From NCBI GenBank assembly GCA_964106915.2, contig OZ066923.1: a stretch of 64,000 bases of DNA, one strand, 5' to 3'. The stretch comes from Podarcis gaigeae (taxonomy: Eukaryota). A model generated the notes under the pieces. It did not search any database. It had not been told where the DNA came from and worked only from the letters and a program-made list of their open reading frames with translations. This document shows positions 1,188 through 49,100 of the stretch, in pieces. Made by a program: the position numbers and the translations under genes. Positions within the stretch are counted from its first letter, which is position 1. Each line of letters starts with the position of its first letter.

Positions 1188-2340
1188 ATTAAAAAACTTA
1201 ATATGGAAGGTCAAAGATGGACCTATGAGGAACTACTGGTAAAATCAGACAAAGGGTGGAAGCTCAGACCTTACGATGAACTGGAAGATAAATTAACAAA
1301 TTGGTTACAATTCTATCAAATTAATTCTTTATGGAACGAGCATAAAAAAATAGGGATGAGTGAGAAAAAGTCCAGATTTCAGGTGGAGATAATAGAAGGA
1401 AACTCCAAACTCCTATCTAAAATGTATAACCAACTATTGGACTGGGAAACCAAGGATGAGGAGGTAAAGGAGGTAATGATTAAATGGGCCATCGACCTCG
1501 GTTATAATCTAGACTACGACAGATGGGCGAAACTTTGGAACAAGGACATGAAATTCACGGCATGTGTTGATCTCCGAGAAAATTTACAAAAAATGATGTA
1601 CAGGTGGTTCCTCACCCCTATGAAATTAGAAAAAATGTACAAGACGGGGGATAAAACTTGCTGGAAGTGTAAGTCCAAAGAGGGTGATTTCCATCACATG
1701 TGGTGGGCCTGTGAAAAAGTGAAAAGGTTCTGGGGACTTATTTATGATGAATTAAATTTTTTTTTGAAATATACCTTCCCTAAAAAACCTGAAGCCTTCC
1801 TTTTAGGGATGGTCGGGAAGGAGATTAGGCCAGAAGATCAAACTATGTTCCAATACGCAATGGCAGCTGCCAGGATACTGCTAGCGCAAAACTGGAAAAC
1901 CTCCAATATTCCTACCATCAGAGACTGGCAATCCAAGTTATTTGAGTATATAGAGCTAGCAAGGATGACACAGAAGACCAGGCATCAAAAAAAGTAAAAT
2001 TTATTAATGATTGGAGCAAATTTATTACATACATAGAAACAAATTTAAAAAATATTAGAATTACAGTAGGTGATATATAAAGTCTGAGAGGTGTAGATTA
2101 GGGTGACAAAAAGACACCGCAGGAAGATAATGTGGGAATGAAGCTCAAACCGTGCTGGAGGGAAGTCAAACACTGTTATGTTATGTTATGAATGTCTGTG
2201 TTTTTGTTTTGTTTTTGTTTGTTTGTTTGTTGTTGTTTATGTTAGTAGGCTTGTACTTTTGTTCTATGTTATTCTTCTGCTTGTTTTCTTTTTCTTTTCT
2301 ATTTTTTGAAAAAGCTTAATAAAAATAAAAATAATAAAAA
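1188..2340 (+). mobile_element. 5'-truncated L1-clade LINE (ORF2 C-terminus, 3' UTR, A-rich tail)
   Basis: ORF 1173..1997 has the L1-type Cys/His motif CWKC...GDFHHMWWAC and AARILLAQNWK. GT-rich 3' UTR, AATAAA and A-rich tail. Perfect 13-bp TSD GATATTGTATACA (1175-1187 and 2341-2353). Confidence 0.93.
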
Positions 2341-3856: not shown

Positions 3857-4220
3857 GGGACGCAGGTGGCGCTGTGGGTTAAAGCCTCAGTGCCTAGGAC
3901 TTGCCGATCGAAAGGTCGGCGGTTCGAATCCCTGCGGCGGGGTGCGCGCCCGCTGCTCGGTCCCAGCGCCTGCCAACCTAGCAGTTCGAAAGCACCTCCG
4001 GGTGCAAGTAGATAAATAGGGACCGCTTACCAGCGGGAAGGTAAACGGCGTTTCCGTGTGCGGCTCTGGCTCGCCAGATGCAGCTTTGTCACGCTGGCCA
4101 CGTGACCCGGAAGTGTCTCCGGACAGCGCTGGCCCCTGGCCTCTTAAGTGAGATGGGCGCACAACCCCAGAGTCTGTCAAGACTGGCCGTCGGGCAGGGG
4201 TACCTTTACCTTTACCTTTA
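3857..4220 (+). mobile_element. Sauria SINE, full length
   Basis: tRNA-like head with B-box GGTTCGAATCC, (ACCTTT)n tail, 12-bp TSD CCCTCACTTCGC (3845-3856 and 4221-4232). Confidence 0.92.
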
Positions 4221-7200
4221 CCCTCACTTCGCAGCACATGCAGAAATCACTTTCTTGATCATTGGACCTACTATTGGTCTTGTCTGCTCAATCCGCCAGA
4301 GCCTGCCTTCTCATGAAGGGGAAGTCTCTATCTCACTGAGGGTTTAAGACTCATCGGCTACCCTCACCTGCTTTTGCCAGCTAGTCGAAGCCATTTTGCA
4401 GGATGTGGCTGCTGTTGCATGCTGACAGCTTTTAGGAGCTACATGTGAGACCTGAGTGGGGACCAAAGCCTTCACCAACCTAGCAGATACCACATTGGTG
4501 AAGATTGTACTACATCATGATATAGCCATGGTTCCTATGGGGCATTCTGTCCCAAATGAACACAGGTAGGCTGCTGAGGGCAGCTAACCTACCACTTGAA
4601 GCAGCGACATTTTTTTCCCTTTGGTAAAACGCCTTGGCCACCTCCTCCTTAAAATGTTAAGGCTACCTGCATCAGCAAACTCTTCTGTTTCCCTTCCCTC
4701 TTTATGGGGGACAGAAAGGTCCCACAAATCAATACGTGTGTGTCTGGAATATTCAACATGGCTTGATTTTAAACCTGTAGCTTATTCTAGCCTTTTATGT
4801 GAAAGCTATTATCTGCATATTGATCTGTTTTTCATGTCACTTGTCCAGATGATTTAATTCTATAATATGTGAGAACATGTTCACAGCTGTCAGATGCCAG
4901 TTGTTGTTTTTTTTTTTTTGTTGCTGGGGAAATGCAAAGCTGCATCAGAATCTAACATTTCATTTGAACACGTCGGCCCAGGGCATGATGAAGGTGACCT
5001 CTCCCTACTTGTTGTCTCCAACAACTGGAAATGATATTTTTACCTCTATCCATTTCAAGTTATATTTTATTTATTATAGCTAACAAGTGGTTAGTGCAAC
5101 AAAATATTGCAATATGGACAGCTCTTGTTCAGTGTTCCAGCCCAACCGTGTTATCTTTTAGGATATTGCATTCCTTCCACTTAGCATGCTCAATGCTCAC
5201 TAGGCTATGTTGGAGTTTCTCCTCGCCCTTAGGATTTTTAACTTATGGAATCATTTTGTCTACCTACAGATATACACTAGGAGAACTGAGTTCACATTCA
5301 CTGTTACAAACTATAGGATAGCCCATTACCAATACATTCTGAATTTGTCTAGTCATCATATTTTGTATCAATTGCATACATTACTTACATGTAGTGTGAA
5401 GCAATATTTCCTTCTGTTAGACCTGAACCTAATCACAGTGTTTCTCTTTCTCTTGTTCATAATATAAACCAAACCTCCATCAAAATTGGCTGAAAAACAG
5501 GAAAGGAATCAACAGACAGTTTTCACAGTGGAGGGAAGTAAATAGTGGGGTCCCTCAAGCTATCTGCATGTGGACCATTGCCGTACAAGTTGTTCAGAAA
5601 TTTACTAGTGTCAGGGGCAAGGTAACCCAGGTTGCAGATGACCTGAAAATAGTGTGCCGTCCCATACAGATTGTGAAGAGTTCCAAAATTATATTGCCAG
5701 AGTGCATGATTAGGCAATTGGGTGGCCGATGGGGTTTATGGATGAGGCTGTTTGTCCACTTGCCATTTGAAAAGCAGCCAGACTCAAATGGTTTAGAAAT
5801 GTAAAAGCTCTTTAATGACAGTCAAGGAAAGATGGGGTACAAGTGGTATTGTCTTGGGGTTGCCCTGAGAGGGAGTAATGTCCACTGAGAGGGATGATGT
5901 CCACTGGTGGGATGTTTCATTTTAGTATCTAGTGTTCTTGCTCAGCTGTTCTCCTTTAACAGAATTGGGGAGAACAAATGGAAGAAATATCAAGTTATGG
6001 CTTTACCTTATCTTATGACTTCAAATGCAAGCTCTTTCAGCTTTACTTGTCTTTTAGGAGGGACCTAGGAGTGCTAAGACCTCCTAGCAATAATGGTACG
6101 AGAGGTACCACTGATTTTTCTGGTGGTGGGCCTGATCTGGCCTTTAGGCTGTGGGTTCACCATTTAGAAGCGCTAAGGCCGGGGGCGGGGCTTAACTCTG
6201 GCCCTGCAGATGTCACTGGATGCCAACTCCCATCAGCCCCAGCCAGCATGACCAGTCGCTGCAAATTATGTGAGTTGTATTCCAGAAACACCTGGTGTGC
6301 CACAGGATAACCACCTGTTTTTCGTATATGATCTTTGATGGCCATTGAGTCACCATGAATTGCCTTTGAATTGTTTCACTGTCAGATTATTTTCTGTTTA
6401 ATCTTGAAGACAACATCCTCTGCTTTTATCCAAAGGTTTTTTGCTTTGCCTCTGTCACAACCCTTGATCATATATTTTGATTGTGACCCTGAGGGGCATC
6501 GATAACTTGTAAGCTGCTTTGGGATCCTTGTTCGGCTGAAGAGGACAGAAATGTTTTAAATAAATAACAAATTTTGAGATTGATGGGAATTCAAGGAACT
6601 CTTTTGAGATAGACTTTTTATGTGAGGGGTATTTCATACAGTACAGAGACTTTTCTTGGCAAGCTGCCTATACGTTCCATGACAGGCTGGTGTTCCTCTT
6701 TCAGACGCATTGTGGCGGGAAGTTGGTATCTAGTTTGGACAGAGGCTTCTTTATCTTGAAAACTACTACAACATACATACAACATAAAAGTTTGAAAATT
6801 GTGGTCGCAATGAGGCCTTCCCTATCCCTAGTGGGAGCCAGAAGATTTATCCAGGCTATCTGATAACAGAAGCCACTATTCCTACATAGCCCTTGCGAGC
6901 AATGCTTTGCTGCTACTTACAGAAAGCCCTTTTTGTTTTGATCCGGAATAGAGCCGTTGCATATCTCGCAAGTCTGTTTTCCCTACAGACTGACCGCTTG
7001 TATGAAATAAGCATTGCTTTGCCCTCATTTGGTCTGAAAATGCTGGAGCCTTGCCATAAAACCCTCCATCTGCCTATATACAGATGCTTTTGTAAATGGA
7101 ACATGCTTTCTGCTGTACAGGCGACGGCCATTTTGCACAGTGTTTTTGTTCCCGGTCCCCGAGTGCGTAGGCTGAGCGCATATAAGCACACCCCACTCTG

Positions 7201-20377: not shown

Positions 20378-21276
20378 TTATTCACGAGTAAAAAGTCTAA
20401 ATCAAGGCAAACAGCCTAATCTTTTCAAAAACTACTGCTGGAAAAAATAATGCAGAAAAATGTCTCTCATTACTGATACAGTGTTTAGTACTTTATGAAG
20501 GAAAAAAAATACAATTTGTGGGTAAAGGGTAGCAGATACAAAATTCACTCAAATGACCAATGGTAAGATGTTGAAGGACCAGTTAAGAGAAATTCATATA
20601 AAACAGGGTTTTATATTTAACTTGTTTACTGTGAAAGAATCCCATGATTCCTCTATGGATGGCCAATTCTGATTAAATATTTTCATAGCTGGGGAGAATC
20701 ATTCCCAAGCCACTTTTTCCACAATAACCTAAAACTTAATGCAGAGCTTTTACTGTGAAAGTTGCCTTCAAGAAAAGGTCTTCGGAGTCAGTGGAAATTG
20801 AGACTTGTCTGGCAATCATACTTATGGCCTGTAAAACCACAGGGCAATGTGACTATTAGGTAGTGGACAGAAGGATAAACTAGCAGCCCAATTCCCAAGG
20901 CTGTCTTTTAACACACTTTTTTGATGTAGTAGAAGCTGAGATTAATTCGCTCTTGCAACAGGCCATAATTGTAACAAACACATTACAGTCACAACTGGAA
21001 ATGTTGAATGTTTTGGCAGCTTGCTGTAAAAATGAGAAATCACCAACCTCTTTGAGCATTGGGCTCTCCAATACCATGCATAGTTTCAAATTGCACTGAA
21101 GTGCACTCTTCTAAAACTGCATGCAGAAGTTAGACTTATCTAGGTTTTCCAAGTTGCTGCTCCATATTGTAAGAGGAGATAAACCACTCTGAACTCGGCT
21201 TCCCATCTTCCTTTTATGAGCTAGCAAGGAAGTCCATATGTTCAGTCATGTTCACAGTTGCCTTTTCTCCTTCCAG

Positions 21277-21438
21277 GTGGCAGCACATGTCCAAAGATCT
21301 TCATAACTCCACTGTGCACGACGAGCAGCACAACTAGACTGTATGAGCCAAACATTGGCAATGAGGTGGCTCAGAAAATAAATGGAATCGTACCAGAGAA
21401 GCCATCTCCACAGCCAGTTTCAATTCCAAAACCACAAG
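21277..21438 (+). CDS. FGD4: FGD4 upstream coding exon of long isoform(s) (GGSTCPKIFITPLCTTSSTT...IPKPQ), 162 nt, phase 1-1
   Basis: Acceptor ccttttctccttccag|, donor CAAG|gtcagt. Open frame joins in frame to exon 29238 (Q-V-PPKP). The peptide resembles the N-terminal extension of long FGD4 isoforms as I recall it. Confidence 0.85.
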
Positions 21439-22252: not shown

Positions 22253-22770
22253 GGCACTGCAGGCCTATTTGCCGTAAAGACAATTCCTCCAACTTGCTAA
22301 TTGAGGAAAACTTAGGGCATTTTCTTTATTCCGTATGTTTGTTCAGTCAAAGGTCTGCCCTGAATGGAGTGGGAAATATTCAAAGGTTGTCTTTGCTATT
22401 CCAGATCTGTTCTGCCAACAAACAACAGGCCCTGACCTGGTTTTGTAGAGTGTTAGTTGGTACTTGGTTTCTTTCTGAAAAGCAGCTTTAAATCTCTGGA
22501 AACCAATGGTATCATTTTATATAACTATTGAGTCCCCACCCAGCATGGGAAAACAAATCCAGGGGAAAAAATGTGTGCAATGTTTATACTTGCTTTAACT
22601 TTTTTTTTAACATTATATTGCTGCTATCTGAAGCAAACAACTACATAAATTTAGCCTGGAAAATGTTAGTTATTACTATCCAGGGGTGCAAATAGGGCAT
22701 TAGAAAAGAGCAAGAGTTTTTGGAGCAGGTTTCCTAGTTCTTTACCAGAGTTAAGGCATGGATCCATGGA

Positions 22771-24444
22771 CTTCCGGGTTGGCGCCATCGCCGAATGGCG
22801 GGCTCCCTCCGTGCTCCGGAGGGAGCCGGCTCGGCAGGGGTTGGGTTCTACCGCGCCGGCGACGCGGGGACCCTCAAAAGCCATGGGCACGGAGCCCCAT
22901 GGACATGGTGACTCGGCTGGCACCTTTGCGCCCCTCCCCGGCCCGCGAAAGAGCCTTTTTAAAGGCTAAGGAACGGGCGCCTGGGGGGTGGTGGTGCTTT
23001 GAGTCCGCCGCTTCCCCTGCCGAGCGAAGCCGCATGCCATTCGGTGGAGAGCGCTAGCTTCTTCTATTGAAAATTTGGATCCAAAAGAAAAACCCGTGAG
23101 TAATTGGACTATGGATTAAAAAGAGGGATAAATTTTTAAAATTTGATGCGAACGGGGGAGGTGGAAAAAGGAAGTCAGCCCCCCCTTTATTGTAGAAAAG
23201 ACAAAACAAAGGACTAGACAACTAAGATCGAGTGTAACCCTATCTTGATGAACTAACAACTTCGCGAGGGAAAATTATAAGTTTGAGCTGGAGGAGAAAA
23301 GGAGAATTTGCATTAAAAAGCAACCCCCCCCCCCCGGAATCCCTGGAGCGATCTGCGAGAATACCTGGAGAAGAGTAATGGAGGTTTTGACAGCTGTCAA
23401 AGAGCTGTCAAAACGGAAGAACAAAATAGAGACGGTGTTTTGAGGACTTTGCCAATTACATTTGGATATAAATTGGATACAAATTGTTTCAAATAAGGAT
23501 TAACAAGCTATTTGGACTGGTGGATGTGATCTGGAAGGGAACTCAGTTACGGTAATCCATCTAGAGGAGCTGAGGGATATTGCATGTGTTTTTGCTAGGA
23601 AACTTGAACAGTTGAACAGAACTTTCAACCTCCTGGGAAACTGCAGAAATGGAACATTATTTTGTCTACAGAGGTCTACATACCACAAGAAACAATGGAT
23701 TTATCTGTTGGAAAATGAAAGGGACATGACGTAATGTTTTGCTCCTGAATAACAAGCCCCTGCAGAGGAATTAGAAGCTTTTGGAAAAAGAACCTTTCTG
23801 CGGGAGAACAGGGAAACAAAAAGGAGGAGAGTGACCGACAAGAATAAGGAAACAACAAGAACTGGACAGAACTGGAAGTGGGGACATTTGGGATATCCAG
23901 ATTTGACAAGCTTATGGAAATAAAATTGGAGCTTTTACTCCTGGATACAAAAATCTGGATAGAAGAAATGAGCCCCTTTTTGAGATAGACTCCTTCTAAG
24001 ATTGGACACTTGTGATTAAAAATGACTGGTAAAGAATCAGAGAGATATGGGTTTAGTGAAAGGTGGGAACACCAGGAAGATATTAGAATTGGAGGGATAT
24101 AAGGAACGCAACAGGGAAAGAGGGGAGGGAAATTTGGAATCCAAAGGCTGTAAAATTATTTTTTCTTTCTTTTTGTATTTTTTTTTCATCTGCACTATAT
24201 CTGAAAGGGGGGAACTCGTGGAAGGGAAGACAGATCTTAGGGGATGGGAATTTGAAAAAATTGGGTTATTGACGATGAGTGTAATTTGGGGATAAGAACT
24301 TGTTGAATTTAATTGTTTATTTAGAAGATTTGGAACACAAGAGGGGGGGGAGGGGGAAGTCCTGGTTATTGGAAGAAGTGTATAAATTGGATTTAATTTG
24401 TTTTAATTTGGAAAATCTTAATAAAAATTATTAAAAAAAAAAAA
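22771..24444 (+). mobile_element. Non-coding, probably non-autonomous L1-mobilised retroposon, apparently full length (about 1.67 kb)
   Basis: Perfect 18-bp TSD AAGGCATGGATCCATGGA (22753-22770 and 24445-24462) preceded by TT. CpG-rich 5' end starting (GA)CTTCCGG. AATAAA at 24420 and an A14 tail. No ORF of 100 aa or more. Confidence 0.8.
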
Positions 24445-25099
24445 AAGGCATGGATCCATGGATAAGTGAATGAAGTTCACAGAATGAAAGCTTCCTTTTT
24501 TCTTCACTCTGTAGCCAATTGTGCACCTTGAAAATGCCTCACCATGGTTCCCTTCTGAACCCTGTGGGATGGTATGGATGGGAAGCTGTCCATAACTGTG
24601 TAGGCCTAAGCATCCTATATCACATGTCATCTCCTGAGAGAAGTTTTTAGGGGTGGCGGAGGTAGCTGTAGGCCAAATTAATTTCAGCATTTGTTTAGCC
24701 TTTAAAACAAGGCACAGTATGTGTGTGTTTACAGTGTTTGCTAAGGTGAAACAACATGTGCATAGAGCTCCTCCGCGTGACCTCCAAGTAAGTCACACAG
24801 AGTAGTATTTAAGGGTTTTTTTGGTCCAAAACTGAATGGTTTGTCTAACCAAATTCCTGGAACAGAGTGCACTTTCATAATCATGTAAACAGAGAAACAT
24901 TAGGATAGGCAGTCTGCTATATGTCTATTACTTTGGTGTTTTGGAATACAATGACACAAAATAATGGACTCATGTAGATGCTGAAGCAATGGTCGTCCCA
25001 GTCCTGTACTATCTGTTCTAACAATTCTTGGAACAATGGGATGGGATATGTTTAATATTTAAGTGTTCAGTCAGAATTTTTCTTTAGACAAACAGTGAG

Positions 25100-28180: not shown

Positions 28181-29237
28181 TTTCATAGCAGAGATGGGCT
28201 CTGAGGTGGGGTCTTTTTCATTCACATCGTCTTATGCAAGCCTGTGTACTATGTACAGAAGGAGTTGCTCTATGGCGAATTTTGGATTGCAGGCCAGGGA
28301 GAGTTTTGTACATGGCATTGAGATAATTTTGAAAGAAATTGTTGGACAAGGCACATCTTAGTACAGAGGCAGAGAAGCCAAAGAGGAAAGAGTTGTGGCT
28401 CGCAAAAACCTGGAGCTGCTTCAGCTGTAGGAAGTTCCAGAACATTATTTTACAGTATCAAATCATCTGTGGGCTTTTTGGGTTAGCCTTGCTGCTGTGC
28501 TCATTAGTTATACATCTCTTGATGAAGTTGTGGAGGCTGGACACGAGGCAGATCTTGCTTAAGTACCTAAGAAGATGTTGTGTGTGTGTATGTGTGTGTG
28601 TGTGTGAGAGAGAGAGAGAATAGAGTACAACATTTATTTACATTTACCCCAATTTTGTACGGGGGTTCTGTTCCTGGCCACCCCATGCATCACTGGGATC
28701 CCCCTGTTCCACCCTGTCCCCTTTCGGTGCTGAAAACAGCATGTGTGTCAATGGGAGCACGTGCTGATCACGCACAAGTGGGGAGTTGCCTGCATTTATT
28801 TATTTTCATATAATTTATATATCACTTGATTATATAAAACAACAAAAACAGCCACAAACCGGTTTACAGAAAGAATGAAACAATAAAATTACCAGTAAAA
28901 AGAGCTATTAAAAACATTTAAATAATAATTAAAATCAGTGATCAGCTAAAAATGTATTAAAACACATGTAAACCTTCTACATATCTGGGCAGGCACTGAA
29001 AAAGAGTAGAGTTAAGGCAGGGTGTACAGAGTACAGGTTTTGTGTTTATAATAATAGCAGTGTTTATAATAATAGCAGAGCTTTCCTGAAAATAAAAAAA
29101 CCGGGAAATCTGGTGGTTTTGGAAAGGGTTTTAAGAATCCCATAGGCCTTTCCGGGAGTCACAGTGTTGAACAGCTTTGATATATGAAATGCCTCCAAAT
29201 GCAAAATACAGTATAGTATGTTCCTTTTTCTTCACAG

Positions 29238-29418
29238 TGCCTCCAAAGCCATTACATCTGCAGAATTCACAGTCATCCATTGCCCACCAAACCCCCAGGC
29301 ATAAAGCTTTACATTCTACGAAGCCAAGAATGGAGGAAGTTACACCTACCTCTTCTTGCGTATCTAAAGAAAAAACTAGTAAAGTTTCTGATCTCATCAG
29401 TCATTTTGAAGGAGGCAG
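29238..29418 (+). CDS. FGD4: FGD4 exon (VPPKPLHLQNS...MEEVTP...[13 protein letters not shown]) containing the classical start ATG at 29330 and the start of the F-actin-binding region
   Basis: Acceptor ttcttcacag|, donor CAG|gtaaac; 181 nt, phase 1-2. Confidence 0.95.
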
Positions 29419-32400: not shown

Positions 32401-35400
32401 TTTACCAAGCAAGTCCTAAGTAAGCGTGAATAGGATTGTAGCCATTCTTGGCCTCTGAAACAATGCTCACCATTCTCTCTGCAAATTTTTGACTCAACTT
32501 TGTTTAACATTGCTCTACTGATACTGCTTTTTTGTTTTTTGCAAAGAGGATAGGAAGGATCTTCTATTCACATAAATTGTTCATGTAATATGAATTAGTT
32601 TTTGCTGTCTTTTATTCTCTTTAGCCCATCCATTCCTAGTGAGCTGAAGAAAGAATCCTCTGTTCTAAATGTTGCTAAATCTCAAGGAAAGCATGGGCCA
32701 GCACCAGCACCTCAGCCAAAATTCCTCACCCAACACCCACTACAGAAGCAGGGATATAGTACAGATCACTCTCAGGATGTACAGAATCGCACAGCCAATG
32801 GAGAAGTAGCACAGAACCAGTTGGACTGCAGGGACAGCACATTGCCGGTTCATAATGCGAGTAGGGCCATTCAAAATGCATCATTTGACAGCAGCTTGGT
32901 AAATGGAGAACGTGAGAACATTAGTACAGACGCATTGCAAACTACAGCAGCCTGCAAAGGGCAAACAATCAATAGCTGTTGCCAGACTCCAAGTGTGAAC
33001 ACGTTATTTCCATCGGGAAAAGAAAGTGTAGAAATGATTACCAATACAAAGAACAAGCAGATTGAGGAGCACAATAAGCAAGACTCGCATGTGGAGACAA
33101 AGGTAAGGCAAGCAGTTTATAAAGAAATGTAGGCTATAAAAATAAAATGTACCTTCTGCATTATTGAAATATATAGGCCTCTGAAGGCCATACAGACCAT
33201 TTGTATTTGCATTCAAATCTGATAGCTGTATCCCTAATGCTTTTTAGACCACTCTACAGCTTGAGCAGTTTATCAAAGGAACGAAGAAATTCAACAATAC
33301 ACTTAACTAGACTGCTTTCAAACGACTGAAATTTTAAGTATCTTCCCCTTTTTAACATAGATACAATATACACACACCAACACTTTTCCTTTTAATTTCT
33401 CAAAGCTTTGCAATTTCAATCTGTCCCCTTCTTGTTCCAAGATTTCCCAATATCTCGGCCATTTAGCCTCCATATTTAGTTTTTTAACAGCCTTTGCCTC
33501 CATAGGCGACAACCACCTTGGAGTTTTACTTTCCAACAAATCTTTATATTTGCTCCAGACATTATATAATGCTTTCCTGACAATATGGTTTTTGAAACCC
33601 TTGTGAGCTTTAACCTTGTCGTACCACAGATATGCATGCCACCCGAAAATATTGTTAAATCCTTCTAGGTCCAAAATGTCAGTGTTCTCAAGAAGTAGCC
33701 AGTCTTTCAACCAGCAAAAAGCTGCTGATTCATAGTAAAGTTTGAAGTCTGGCAGGGCAAATCCGCCCCTTTCTTTCACATCAGTTAATATCTTAAATTT
33801 AATTCTTGGCTTCTTGCCCTGCCAGACAAATCTAGAAATATCTTTCTGCCACTTCTTGAAACAATCCATCTTGTCCAATATTTGCAATGTTTGAAACAAA
33901 AACAACATTCTAGGCAATACATTCATCTTAATAACCGCAATTCGACCCAACAAGGAAAGCTTCATATTTGTCCAAATTTCTAAAATCTTTTTTCACTTCT
34001 GTCCAAGATTTCTCATAGTTGTCTTTAAATAAGTTCAACACCAACACAAAATCTATGTATCTTTTGCCAGTTTGACCACATTCCATTTATACAAGGCAAA
34101 AGCTGTGAAGGAATCGATATTGTAGGTGTAGATCAGAGAGGCAATACCAGTGGTATCTCTTGGATATGGAAGCTGTTGAGGGAGATTGCCTGGAGGGCTT
34201 TCCTGCAAAGGAAGGTTCTGGCTCTGAACACAGACTTCCTGTTTGTGTGGACACTTCAGTCTACACAGTGTGGTCTCGGACACTGAAGGGCTTTTTCATT
34301 TAGCAGAATAGCTGGAACAGTTCTTTTCCTCTTTATGAGTGTCCTCATTAGTAAAACGAGCCAAATGCCAATGATTGCAGGAAGGACATCCCAGTTATGA
34401 AAAGGGTGTTGACAGTAATTTACAGGAAAAGGCAGAGACAACAGGGTGGTGGTACAAGAACATACAGGAAGTAAATTGGCACACACCTGGAGAAGGTAAC
34501 GGAAGGAAGCCGTTCAGTATGAGCCTTCTCACCTTCTGGATGATGAACTAATGTTATGATATGTGGCCTTTACATGTTGTAACACCCCAGTGGGAGCAGT
34601 TTTTCTGTGGGTTATTGCCATAGTTCAGCTGTAACATTTCGTTTAATAGACTGTGACCTTATGGACAGGGTCATTCCTATGGGTCCTTTCGCTGGAATTC
34701 TCAGCGCAGTGGGAAATGACACACCCATGGTCTCCCTCAGAGGGGGTACAATGGGTAAAGGGCACCCAACAGACGTAAGCAGCAAGGAGTGTTTAGACAT
34801 TCCGTAATACAAAAAGAGTAAAGCAGAAGAATGGCAGCTGCTGTGATATTCATTATTCCATGCTGTGATATCCTGCTGTGATTTGTAAGGTAAAGGTAAA
34901 GGGACTCCTGACCATTAGGTCCAGTCGTGACCGACTCTGGGGATGCGGCGCTCATCTGGCTTTATTGGCCGAGGGAGCCGGCGTACAGCTTCCGGGTCAT
35001 GTGGCCAGCATGACTAAGCCGCTTCTGGCAAACCAGAGCAGCGCACAGAAACACCGTTTACCTTCCCGCCGGAGCGGTACCTATTTATCTACTTGCACTT
35101 TGACGTGCTTTCGAACTGCTAGGTTGGCAGGAGCAGGGACCGAGCAACGGGAGCTCACCCCGTCGCGGGGCTTCGAACCGCCGACCTTCTGATCAGCAAG
35201 TCCTAGGCTCTGTGGTTTAACCCACAGCGCCACCCGCATTCCACTGTGATTTGTACAGAGTATTTTTTAAAAAAATCATAATAAGGTGGGCTCCTCCTTG
35301 GAGTTGAGCATTCCCTAATCCTGGTCAGCACTCTTGAGTTCCTGGCCAGTTGCAGATCAATCAAATCCAGATTTCAAAATGGACTAGAAACATAGGGAGG

Positions 35401-43100: not shown

Positions 43101-46100
43101 AACTTGGCCCTCCAGCTGTTTTGGGACTACAGTTCCCATCATCCCTGACCACTGGTCCTGTTAGTTAGGGATGATGGGAGTTGTAGTCCAACAACAGCTG
43201 GAGGGCCAAGTTTGGCCACCACTGCTGTAGAAAATAGGATGTTGAAGTAGATCAAGGGTCCCTGATCTGTTTGGGCCTAGGGGCACATTTGGAAATGCAA
43301 TAAATGGAAAATACACATTTAATAGAAGGAAAGCTAGAGGTGCTCAGGACCCCACCATCACTACGCAAGCAATGGGGGCGGGGGGGGGGGAATACATACA
43401 TCTTAAGCAAAGAAGGTCAGGCAATGCCTTTTACCGAGTTCTCAAGATTTCTTAGGGACGCGGGTGGCGCTGTGGGTTAAACCACAGAGCCTAGGACTTG
43501 CTGGTCAGAAGGTCAGCGGTTCGAATCCCCGCGACGGGGTGAGCTCCCATTGCTCAGTCCCTGCTCCTGCCAACCTAGCAGTTTGAAAGCACATCAAAGT
43601 GCAAGTAGATAAATAGGTTCCGCTCCGGCAGGAAGGTAAACGGCGTTTCCGTGCGCTGCTCTGGTTCGCCAGAAGCGGCTTAGTCATGCTGGCCACATGA
43701 CCCGGAAGCTGTCTGTGGACAAACGCCGGCTCCCTCGGCCTATAGAGTGAGATGAGCGCACAACCCCAGAGTCGGACACGACTGGACCTAATGGTCAGGG
43801 GTCCCTTTACCTTTACCTTTAGAGATTTCTTTGGTTGTTGGAAGATGAGCAAATTCTCATAAGGATTTTGTTTTGAGGTGGCTAGAGGGGCAGATAGCAA
43901 TTTGAACTGATTGTTAATTTGTAGTTTCTAGTCCTAAAGCACTGTTCCACCCAGAACTTATTTCATATGCTTCATTCTAACAAAAGATATATTACCAAAC
44001 CTGTGTCTGTTTTATAGCTAGGGACTAAGGCACCTATATCAACTTCACAAAGTCTCTTTTTTTTTACTTCTCCAAGTTTTGACGTTATCTACTTTAAGTT
44101 CACATAAGTCTAAGGAAACTTATTGGACTGAGGGCACAATCCTATACATGTCTACTCATAAGTAAGTCTCATTGAGTTCTGTGGGACTTGCTCCCAGTAA
44201 GTATGTAAAGTATTACAGCCTGAATCTTATAATTCACTATAATTTGTTGGCAATAAAAAAGTGAAACATGCAAGTTAGCATTTGAAGCCGCTGTTTATGT
44301 ATTGTAGTACTAGTAATTAACCTTTGGGGGGGGGTCATTTTCTCTTATAGAATCCTTGGAAATAATATCTACAGCAGCAAGTCATTCTAATAGCGCCATC
44401 CGAAAAATGGTGAGTGACTTCTGTGAGATTTTTTCCTTTGCATAATCCACGTCAGGAGATAAAACAGGCAATTTGGCAGGTGTCTAAGTAGGAAATATTG
44501 CAATTAAGCCTTTTATATTAGCTTTTTCCAAATTCTCATGCAGTAATTTTAAGGTAACTTAAATGAAAGGTAGGGCTGTCACATGCTTGGAAAAAACCCT
44601 TATTCAATTATATGTATTAGATTCTGATTAAATCTGTATGAATAAATGCAGTTTTGGGGAAAGTACACTCCTCACCTTAAAGCAAGGAATGTGTATGTTT
44701 CACAGCAGGTATTATATCATAAGATGTAATTTACAATGGGGGATACTTCTAAGATGACAGTAGCTTTTAAGGGCTTACCTTAGAATATTTTTAAAAGCAC
44801 TGCCAATTAATTGGAGTCATTAGTCATTAGTCATTAGTTTTTAAAAATGCATTGTTCTAATAAATTAGTGGCTAAATATTGCAGCTCTGTTATCAAGCGA
44901 TTCAAGTGTTTTACTGCATGAAGCTTGTTACATTTAACTCCCACCTTTCATCCAAGGAGCTCAGAGCAGCATACATGGTCCTCCCCTTCCCATTTTATCC
45001 TCACAATATCCCTATGAGATAAGTTAGACCAGGGCTCAGCAAACTTTTTCAGCAGGGGGCCAGTCCACTGTCCCTCAGACCTTGTGGGGGGCCAGACTAT
45101 ATTTTGAAAAATAAAATAAAAAATGAACAAATTCCTATGCCCCACAAATTACCAAGAGATGAATTTTAAATAAAAGGACACATTCTACTCATGTAAAAAC
45201 ACGCTGATTCCTGGACCATCCACGGGCCAGATTGAGAAGGCGATTGGGCTGGATCCGGCCCCCAGGCCTTAGTTTGCCTACCCATGAGTTAGACTGAGAA
45301 AAAATGATTGATTGAAGGTCATTGAGCTTGTATGGCTGAGTTGGTGAATTTGAACCTAGATTCCCAGCCCATCTTAGCTGGATGCTCCTATCACTACACC
45401 ACGCTTGCTCCCAAGTTCCTTTTTTTCCATTCATTGAATATAGTGTCTTTTGAGGATGTTTATTGATGGGATTTTTCTCTTAGCAAGCATATATGTACAA
45501 ATATTTTATTGGGAAAGTCATTTTGTTGCAAGAGATGTTCATAATTGCAAGCCGTTTCCTAATTTTTATTGTAGCAATGCCACCAATCATTTTCATAGAG
45601 GACAGTTCTTGCTAAAACAGTTGCATGTTTTTGTTCTTAACGATTTAACCTTTCTCATTAAAAAAATTCACAAGTGGCGTGCACTAACGGTTGTCGCATT
45701 TTGTTTTGATGGAAAAGGAAAACTTAAAGAAGTTGTTGGAGGTTTATGAGATGTTAGGAGAAGAAGAAGACATTGTCAATCCTTCAAATGAACTCATAAA
45801 AGAAGGACAAATACTTAAACTTGCTGCTCGTAATACATCTGCCCAAGAAAGATACCTTTTCTTAGTGAGTATTTCTTTCTTACACCCCACTTAATTTTAG
45901 CCTGTGCATAACATTTCTAAATCTGATCTTTTGGTGTATCTTCTATTTTGTTGGTATGGTACATACATTATACTGGCTCTCTGAAAAAAAATATGCTTGC
46001 AAACTAGCATGCCTTCATCCTGTACAAATTTCCTCCTCATATCCCTTTATTTGTCTTAACCATTGTTTAGTGTTGCATCTGAGTTAATGTTAATGAGGTT

Positions 46101-49100
46101 CCCTCTTAACCACTTCTAGCAAACTTCAAAACTATGAGTAAGCATAACAATGGCTTGTGTTGGTGCAATTGTAGCATTAAACCATTATTAAGTCTGAAAA
46201 CACAAGGATTGAATTCTTTTTGTGAAAGGAGTCTCCCAATTTGCAGACTGGATTGATGGGAGTATTTCTGCTGCCTCAGTGAATTTGGCTGAGGAAGCAC
46301 AATACATTTATTATTTTTTACCTTGCTGGTGAAGCTCAAGCATCTTTTGTTACTGCTAGCAACACTTTTCCACCCATTAAATGGGCAGGTTTTTTCCTCT
46401 CCCTTGTAAACGGGGAGATGCATTTTTACATTTTTTTTCTGGTCCCCTCCTCCTCCCAGTGGGCATATTTATTAATTCCGCTCAAGCAGGTATGAAGGAT
46501 ATGCATGTTTAAAGCCTGCATGAGGGAAAAACTTCACTTATACTCCATTTAAGCTTTAGATGACACAGATGTGGATTAAACCATCAAAGTGATCCTGGAG
46601 AATCCTTATGTATACTTAATCTGCCCTCAGCCTAATCCATAATGACTCCTTCCTTGCAAGCCATTTTATAGTATACTCAGGAGATAAAAAGAGAGAGCTT
46701 CAAGTCAGTGTAACTGAATCCCAGGCCCCTTACATACACCAACCTACTAAAATAATTTATCTATGAAATGTCCTTTCAGTGAGCTTCTGGTTTGTTTGAT
46801 CATTAATAACTGAATATGTTAATAGTTTTAATTCCAGCAAGCAAGCATAATTCTGAGGCCTGTTTTATATCTTAATCCATGCAACATGAAGAAAATCTGA
46901 AATGTGAGGAATAGCCCTCTCTTTCCCCCCAGTGTCAATGTAGTTGTCAAAAAGTCATCCGTTTTGGGAAGTTCAAGTCGGCGCAGAATATTACCCTCTA
47001 TTAAAATACATGTCAGCTACTTAATAAACTAGTGCTTGCAACTTGCATTCATTGCAGCATTGGTTTTAAGAAGCATGTGGAACGGTAGGGTGCAAATAAT
47101 TTGGCTTTTCTTTTGAATCCTTGGAAGTAGTTAGATTTCATTACCAGTGGTTTCAACAATACATATGAAGGTTGCATTTATAACTATAGATGGGCTAGCC
47201 TTCTAAAAATTAAGTTGGCAATTCAATAAGCCTGTTGCGAAGTGCTGCATACAACAATTTAACCCTAGAATGTTTTGCCATGCTGGAAACATATGTTATC
47301 ATGTTTGCTTTATTTATTTTTCTTGCTACCCAGCTGCTTCCTGCCTTAACTGCTGCTACAGTGGTGCCCCGCAAGACAAACGCCTCGCAAGACGGAAAAC
47401 CCGCTAGACGAAAGGGTTTTCCGTTTTGGAGGCGCTTCGCAAAACGAATTTTTTATGGGCTTGCTTCGCAAGACGAAAATGTCTTGCGAGTTCCTTCGGG
47501 TTTTTTCCCCTTTTCCTAAGCCGCTTATCAGCTGATCCGCTGATAAGCCGCTTAACAGCTGATCGCTAAAAGCCGCTAAACCACTAATAGCGCTAATCCG
47601 CTAAGCTGTCAATGGGCTTGCTTCGCAAGACGAAAAAACCGCTAGACGAAGAGCCTCACGGAACGAATTAATTTCGTCTTGCGAGGCACCACTGTACTAC
47701 TGTGTTCTCTTGCTCTGGTGGGGCAATTGCTGCCATGTTGTGAAACATGAATGTGTGCAAATGCATTGCTCATAAACACAGCTGACTGGATAAATTGCTG
47801 TGCATAGCAGGGAGTTGTGGCATTTTGTAGAACAGAGACAGCCAGCAAGAGCAGCAATAATGGCGGCAGCAGCAGCAGCAAACGCCATCTTGTTCTGCCT
47901 TTTGCTTTAGGAAGCCACCTACACTTACCCAGCTGTACAATAGCTCTTCCAAACACTTTTGCCCACTGCTGATTGATGCTGAGAGCTTAATAACAACTTA
48001 AAAACACAGTTCCAAACAATGAAGATCTTAAATTAATAGATGGAACAGTGATCAACCAAGTGTGCATTTGGCTGTCCTTAATAGGTCAAGGAACGTGGGT
48101 GGCGCTGTGGGTTAAACCACAGAACCTAGGACTTGCCGATCAGAAGGTCGGTGGTTCGAATCCCCGTGACAGGGTGAGCTCCCGTTGCTCCCTGCTCCTG
48201 CCAACCTAACAGTTCGAAAGCACGTTAAAGTGCAAGTAGATAAATAGGTACCGCACCGGCGGGAAGGCAAATGGCGTTTCCGTGTGCTGCTCTGGTTTGC
48301 CAGAAGCGGCTTAGTCATGCTGGCCACATGACCCGGAAGCTGTACGCCGGCTCCCTCAGCCAATGAAGCAAGATGAGCACCGCAACCCCAGAGTCGGCCA
48401 CAACTGGACCTAATGGTCAGGGGTCCCTTTACCTTTAATAGGTCAAAGTTATTGAGTGGCAGGCTTCTTTCTGCAATAAATACACATGGGTACCTCATCT
48501 ATTTTGCACATTCCTCATGCCTTCCTTCGGGGTTGCCCATCTGTGTGAATGTGTGTTTACCTTCATTCTTGAGTGCTGACTACATGCTTCAAGCAAATCT
48601 CTGCCTTAGAGCCTCAGGACATTTTGTTCCACCAGTGAAGCAGCTTTCGGAGGGAGTGACTTGAGAGCAGAGAAGTGTGGGGAGAGCACAACACTTTCTG
48701 AACTCCAAATTAGCTTCCTACCCCCACATCTCTCCTCTCCACATCCCCAATTTTAAATGTAAGCAGTTTTTGAAATGCAAAATACATAGCAGAAGGTGGC
48801 AGCTATAATATGAGTGTTTGATGTAATTTGTAAACAGTTCCTCTTATTTAGTACATTGGAAAATTTAGCATTTCTTTCCAAAAGCATATTGAACGTTGTG
48901 CTTACTGTGTGGAATATGGTTGGGTGAACACTGTGAGATGTTTGACGTTATTATTGATAACTTGACTGAACTCCTCTATACCACACTTCTGAAAATTCCT
49001 TTTTTGTTGTTTATGCTGTTTAAGCTTCTCTACCTTTTTCAAGCCTTTTACGCAAGAGAGGTTTGTCTTTGTGGCAGCTAACATCGGTTGGTGTGGCTTG

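Follow-up and report, generated by a model that had tools for sequence, protein, structure and literature searches.

A protein-free, probably L1-dependent retroposon of a lacertid lizard and its probable descent from an ORF1-only half-L1

What kind of element lies in an intron of the FGD4 gene of a lacertid lizard, carrying the marks of L1 insertion and no evident protein? We address this question in a stretch of 64,000 nucleotides, referred to here as the window, in which a first-pass annotation had proposed a long non-coding, L1-dependent family. The element spans 22768-24446 on the plus strand, in the sense orientation that had been assigned to it between two FGD4 exons (Table 1), an FGD4 exon in the window being 98% identical to the Lacerta agilis protein. 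Its first 300 nt hold 30 CpG (observed/expected 0.88, compared with 0.30 in the window), in agreement with the CpG-dense 5' block described, and the AATAAA signal and A14 tail were likewise found. The 18-bp target-site duplication (TSD) announced at a TT site is present as a repeat preceded by TT; its true length is 15-18 bp, because the GGA that closes the repeat also opens the family sequence. We confirm that no ORF reaches 100 aa: the longest sense ATG-ORF has 82 aa, and on the antisense strand two stop-to-stop frames measure 159 and 121 aa, neither with a useful Met. SINE-type heads (tRNA, 5S, 7SL, snRNA) are absent, as claimed for the tRNA type; an Rfam scan of the element returns no family and a sole hit at chance level (E 0.76), and the head is an L1 5' UTR, which rules out a SINE. 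We found no ORF2 match inside the element, and a Pfam search of its six read-through frames is blank, a result that is uninformative as Pfam misses the host's own L1 ORF1 too.

Table 1. Features of the element and its FGD4 surroundings (window positions), and loci of the sister family.
Feature	Position	Strand	Remarks
FGD4 coding exon, upstream side of host intron	21276..21437	+	96% to P0024
Left target-site duplication	22753..22770	+	AAGGCATGGATCCATGGA; 15-18 bp; final GGA also the element's first letters; single copy at the empty site in 3 other organisms
L1-derived 5' end	22768..23255	+	63-68% identical over ~450-500 nt to the start of the parent L1 lineage; agrees with the start consensus for lizard clade-1 L1 in PMC5381506; predicted, likely internal Pol II promoter
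Internal GGAAGTC	23170..23176	+	kept across ORF-less, ORF-bearing and parent-L1 elements (28/29 listed)
Remaining 5' UTR	23256..23587	+	collinear with ORF-bearing sister family B (66% over element 3-913)
Reduced-ORF1 fossil	23588..24080 (ends approximate)	+	start codon gone; stops in all three frames
3' UTR	24081..24432	+	collinear with sister family B (E 2.5e-18 for element 1093-1475; weak beyond)
G-rich tract closing with GGAAGTCC	24341..24362	+	complement of the element's first 8 nt
AATAAA and A14 tail	24420..24446	+	AATAAA 24420-24425; A14 24433-24446, two A common to tail and TSD
Right target-site duplication	24445..24462	+	AAGGCATGGATCCATGGA
FGD4 coding exon, downstream side of host intron	29237..29416	+	100% to P0024
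Family B copies	L091 7220-9201; L097-L126; L157-L176	minus (L091)	

The window element is a young copy of a multi-copy subfamily. The 40 scored genome hits all match it at 97-100% identity, 39 of them near full length, and each of 30 loci fetched with the 5' 300 nt runs on into the same 1.67-kb element, so the many colinear copies foreseen for a family do exist; 27 of the 30 are flanked by distinct TSDs, 13-21 bp long (median 18). A pyrimidine precedes the nick in 25 of these 27 and an A-rich start follows it, a combination that is the signature of the L1 endonuclease, and the insertions are of the target-primed reverse transcription type. Between TSD and ACTTCC these copies (L001-L030, n = 27) show no letter in 9 cases, G in 5, GG in 4, GGG in 3, GA in 3 and other letters in 3, a variability that would fit cap copying and scatter of the start site. 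Two subfamily-specific 22-mers, one near each end of the element, give 81 and 91 hits (5' and 3', respectively), 77 of which pair up, for about 95 copies, and 81 of the 95 extend to within ~100 nt of the start. Contig C32 (29.5 Mb) of genome G000 holds only 1 of 81 window-subfamily copies, yet long L1s and family B are heavily over-represented on it (10 of 30 B loci); the contig is possibly a non-recombining sex chromosome.

Mean divergence from the majority is 0.47% (30 best-scoring copies), and 25 stop codons, counted in three frames of the central region, are common to the copies, each being present in 28-30 of 30. Coding loss is therefore older than the amplification, which upholds the earlier view of a young insertion that had lost its coding capacity beforehand; the copies have no long common ORF. 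Presence or absence of the insert at the FGD4 site was read from four sequencing runs. Runs of three other, related organisms (X4, X5, X7) join the flanks without the element in a single contig (22757 to 24450), providing the empty orthologous site that had been sought, and in run X2, another sample of the best-matching organism, contigs enter the element from both flanks.

Where does the family come from? An exact 21-mer of the 5' end has 587 genome hits, and from the first 55 places listed we fetched 40, the 15 left out having already been seen. They comprise 29 ORF-less elements, 6 B-like elements, 2 elements of type C, 1 L1 with ORF1 and part of ORF2, and 2 unclassified cases. Identity of the 29 ORF-less relatives to the window copy ranges over 71-98%. 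Their sense ATG frames do not exceed 111 aa, 27 of the relatives carry ORF1-like fragments in shifting frames, and some of their subfamilies bear unrelated ATG frames of 82-111 aa. On contig C1 the ORF-less type occupies 24 of 36 places with the common 5' end (left-out places counted), which makes the protein-free descendant the commonest element with that end, as seen with a marker whose three CpGs favour young copies.

L1 elements of what we call the parent lineage, including some of 5.9-6.7 kb between TSDs, open with the same motif. Their first 450-500 nt are 63-68% identical to the window element and 70-73% to family B, so that the predicted match to an autonomous L1 is found at the 5' end; positions 23256-23587 lack a significant match to the parent L1. 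Towards the other end, the parent 3' UTR matches family B over 270-370 nt at 67-69%, and the 3' part of the window copy matches one parent copy over 56 nt at 82%. The first-pass annotation had likened the 3' end to the L1 at 1188-2340 of the window. A motif of that L1, GGGAAGTC, and the similar end are indeed there, but blastn aligns only 40 nt at 80% (E 0.002), and we reject this L1 as the parent in favour of the other lineage with the same 5' end. The L1 at 1188-2340 (plus strand) is itself a 5'-truncated copy with an ORF2 C-terminus and a TSD, has two genome copies at 98% and belongs to a lineage different from the element's parent. An L1 ORF2 fragment resembling the ORF2 of the parent lineage lies in another FGD4 intron (33321-33992, minus strand), and the window also contains four copies of one short repeat (3890-4246, 34869-35189, 43508-43927 and 48115-48498), probably a Sauria SINE. 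Internally deleted parent-lineage copies with their own TSDs occur at L203 (4.5 kb) and L237 (2.9 kb), and deletions of this kind could found a half-L1. A search for an intact helper L1 found none: open frames do not exceed 1140 aa in the 150 scored ORF2 copies closest to the parent lineage, nor 1083 aa in 40 fetched L1 stretches; another L1 lineage may serve as helper.

Family B, a large half-L1 family revealed as the chance neighbour of an L1, is about 2 kb long, with TSDs and an A tail. Its first 20 nt are nearly those of the window element, and it comprises many subfamilies with protein identities of 60-98%. Each element has a single ORF, which counted from Met measures 193-215 aa and is uninterrupted in 20 of 26 readable copies. 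In 18 copies chosen for open frames, dN/dS of this ORF is 0.45, compared with 0.65 and 0.62 in shifted-frame controls, and falls at 0.32-0.41 in the 15 most distant pairs; gaps keep the frame in 10 of 11 cases within the ORF, the UTR figures being 19 of 73 and 21 of 67, a contrast favoured by the choice of open copies. By these measures the ORF is under purifying selection. Among 1.84 billion representatives, 13 are relatives of its protein. One of them, P0020, is a retroviral-envelope-like prediction that ends in ~60 residues of the family B ORF and is probably a gene-model chimera; the others are all of one kind with it. ESM Atlas gives the ORF one low score (0.76), and in the AlphaFold model (mean pLDDT 44) only the first 50 residues are confident, as a predicted N-terminal helix.

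The family B protein aligns end to end with ORF1 of the parent lineage (hhalign 97.5%, E 5.6e-12), and top hmmsearch scores are 27-49 bits, whereas none of 693 shuffled or reversed controls exceeds 5.7. It retains the coiled coil, the RRM's beginning and the C-terminal tail, and lacks the greater part of the RRM and a large share of the CTD. The ORF has no significant match to ORF1 of the L1 lineage at 1188-2340 and matches only that of the lineage found through the common 5' end. Because its ORF corresponds to a reduced ORF1 of an L1 lineage with the same 5' end, we classify family B as HAL1-like. A DNA profile of family B aligns to the window element over positions 1-1012 (E 1e-135) and 1093-1475 (E 2.5e-18) of the latter, and within the ORF region with E values of 2.5e-4 and 6.8e-4. 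The window copy's own frames do not match the family B ORF profile, so its link to ORF1 rests on DNA profiles and sister subfamilies. The earlier statement that no ORF1 peptide is recognisable thus holds for direct searches and fails when sister families are used, through which the body reads as a broken ORF1; this fossil and the hhalign match of the sister ORF also bear out the HAL1-like origin for which L1 ORF1 profiles had been proposed as a check.

In a tree built for 57 elements from their first 520 nt, with L1s as outgroup, the 27 ORF-less rows fall into one clade (100/100) nested among ORF-bearing ones. Three elements of the ORF type (L201, L185, L190) are its successive sisters, leaving family B paraphyletic. 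The ancestral ATG is gone in all 18 aligned ORF-less rows and present in all three sisters. Within the ORF-less clade, several subfamilies show long inner and short end branches, successive ones having been amplified after the ORF was lost. dN/dS in this clade is 0.64 and rises to 0.73 and 0.74 when the frame is shifted; of 59 gaps, 27 have a length divisible by three. Relaxation of selection is thus less clean than the loss of the ORF. The ORF1-only type C arises separately in the same tree, inside the L1s; its two members (L179, L204), nested in the parent L1 lineage, have a frame of ~199 aa with coiled-coil and CTD pieces.

The copies, their TSDs, the L1-derived ends and the empty site support the original reading of a long non-coding, L1-dependent family. 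We further consider it highly probable that the element is a protein-free retroposon that descends from an ORF1-only half-L1 and borrows ORF1p and ORF2p of intact L1s. An L1 would first have lost ORF2, and its ORF1 would then have shrunk, under purifying selection, to the coiled coil, RRM start and C-terminal tail; one branch of these half-L1s would have lost start codon and frame and still founded new subfamilies. With the L1 5' end as promoter, Pol II would transcribe the element from its first base, the transcript would be ended by AATAAA, and L1 endonuclease and reverse transcriptase would insert the element by target-primed reverse transcription at T/A-rich sites. Mobilisation by L1 ORF2p in trans is likely, judging from the insertion signature. 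Since Pol II transcripts in human cells need ORF1p plus ORF2p in trans, according to PMC2666806, both proteins are likely borrowed.

Other readings differ in where a protein would come from. The ORF-less clade might be a parasite of a parasite that still needs the mini-ORF1p of its ORF-bearing sisters in trans together with L1 ORF2p. Sisters with open frames are present in the same genome, and their ORF combines purifying selection with a confidently predicted N-terminal helix; however, those sisters that were examined seem to be of greater age, at 92-97% to the query copy compared with 97-100% in the window subfamily, and full L1 ORF1p would be available anyway, so we regard this dependence as unlikely. 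That the element instead encodes a new short protein in another frame seems very improbable. A sense ATG frame of 82-83 aa is open in 28 of 30 window-subfamily copies and a residual dN/dS of 0.64 remains in the ORF-less clade, but an open frame is expected at only 0.47% divergence, many ATGs precede this one, which lies ~1270 nt downstream from the start, and the longest frames of other subfamilies (49-111 aa) differ and lie at different places.

A TSD and an A tail are common to every L1-made insert, and would be seen as well if the copies derived from a host lncRNA or other processed transcript picked up by L1, or were dead, internally deleted L1s. The ~95 copies in one subfamily, the ladder of subfamilies 71-98% alike, the L1-derived ends and the fossil ORF1 make such an origin barely credible, and we rule out a processed lncRNA or dead L1 fragment on copy number and subfamily structure.

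A further proposal concerns the ends of the RNA. As reported earlier, GGACTTCC at 22768-22775 is the exact reverse complement of GGAAGTCC at 24355-24362. The 3' motif is GGAAGTC in most ORF-less elements and in the other L1 lineage, mostly GGAGGTC in family B and the parent L1, and GGGAGTC in one subfamily, and G-U keeps pairing possible across these variants; A-to-G change, however, is common in a G tract. Pairing is broken in some copies (L194, L204, L244, L255), the 5' side never covaries, and the internal GGAAGTC competes. GGAAGT is also an ETS site. The pairing probability is 0.69 in the ensemble of the window copy, and a duplex scan ranks the 3' motif third or higher as a partner in only 6 of 23 elements. 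Such pairing goes unmentioned in the 3' UTR section of PMC5381506. The complementarity is common to the element and host L1s, and any role of pairing is hypothetical. We tentatively suggest, as a possibility that we doubt, that lacertid L1s and their parasites loop their RNA by pairing the first 7-8 nt with the G-rich 3' motif, and that the retained loop signal and promoter let the protein-free element recruit L1 proteins in trans, insert mostly at full length and become more numerous than the protein-coding elements from which it came. If so, a long Pol II retroposon could do without ORF1p in cis, and L1 would have a cis signal that has gone unrecognised.

One genome thus appears to record a reductive series from full L1 through a half-L1 with a shrunken, selected ORF1 to a protein-free descendant. 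This contrasts with the view that half-L1s need their own ORF1p and with a 2018 survey, PMC5786205, in whose relevant passages no ORF-less element has an L1-clade source. Natural matched pairs with and without the mini-ORF1 make two questions testable, namely the function of HAL1 ORF1p and the means by which a long Pol II RNA gets past L1 cis preference. The young copies are clean presence/absence markers for lacertids, and they bring a predicted CpG promoter and a poly(A) signal into introns such as that of FGD4.

Among known systems, SVA and LAVA of primates and Sadhu of Arabidopsis are long non-coding retroposons that use L1-type machinery in trans, and are composites or of unknown origin; unlike them, the lizard element is wholly L1-derived, with a traceable ORF1 fossil. 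HAL1 ORF1p is reportedly essential, as argued by Bao and Jurka in 2010. The classification passages of PMC5786205 split non-autonomous LINEs into ORF1-present (HAL1, HeT-A, Ag-Sponge) and ORF-absent elements, treat ORF1p as necessary for the former, and trace the latter to no source other than RTE, Ingi, Vingi and R2.

Our searches of the open-access literature gave no report of a lizard HAL1 or an ORF-less HAL1 descendant; automatic lacertid repeat libraries may hold the element under an L1 label. As with lizard clade-1 L1, in the sections of PMC5381506 that describe it, the start fits GACTTCCGG...ATGGCG, the 5' UTR is long and CpG-rich, and AATAAA and an A tail close the element; unlike that L1, it is devoid of both ORF1 and ORF2, is a quarter as long and has copies that are mostly full length. 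It shares with the mammalian HAL1s described in parts of PMC5753468 and PMC5786205 an L1-derived 5' UTR, the position of ORF1, the lack of ORF2, an A tail, TSDs, multiple copies and repeated independent origin (at least twice here, as families B and C). It differs from those HAL1s, which encode ORF1p, in having lost ORF1p and kept amplifying in a lizard, ORF1 being encoded only by sister family B, where it is just ~200 aa long, with the bulk of the RRM and a good part of the CTD missing. With the ORF-absent bipartite LINEs covered in PMC5786205 (RIME, NARTc, and RTE and Vingi derivatives) it has in common the lack of a protein, a LINE-derived 5' end, presumed Pol II transcription and dependence on an autonomous LINE. 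Unlike these, which in that account consist of 5' and 3' parts only, it belongs to the L1 clade, measures 1.7 kb, retains ~500 nt of fossil ORF1 and would have decayed stepwise via a half-L1 instead of by one internal deletion. The element therefore works like an ORF-absent LINE and is HAL1-like by descent, departing from each class in one defining trait.
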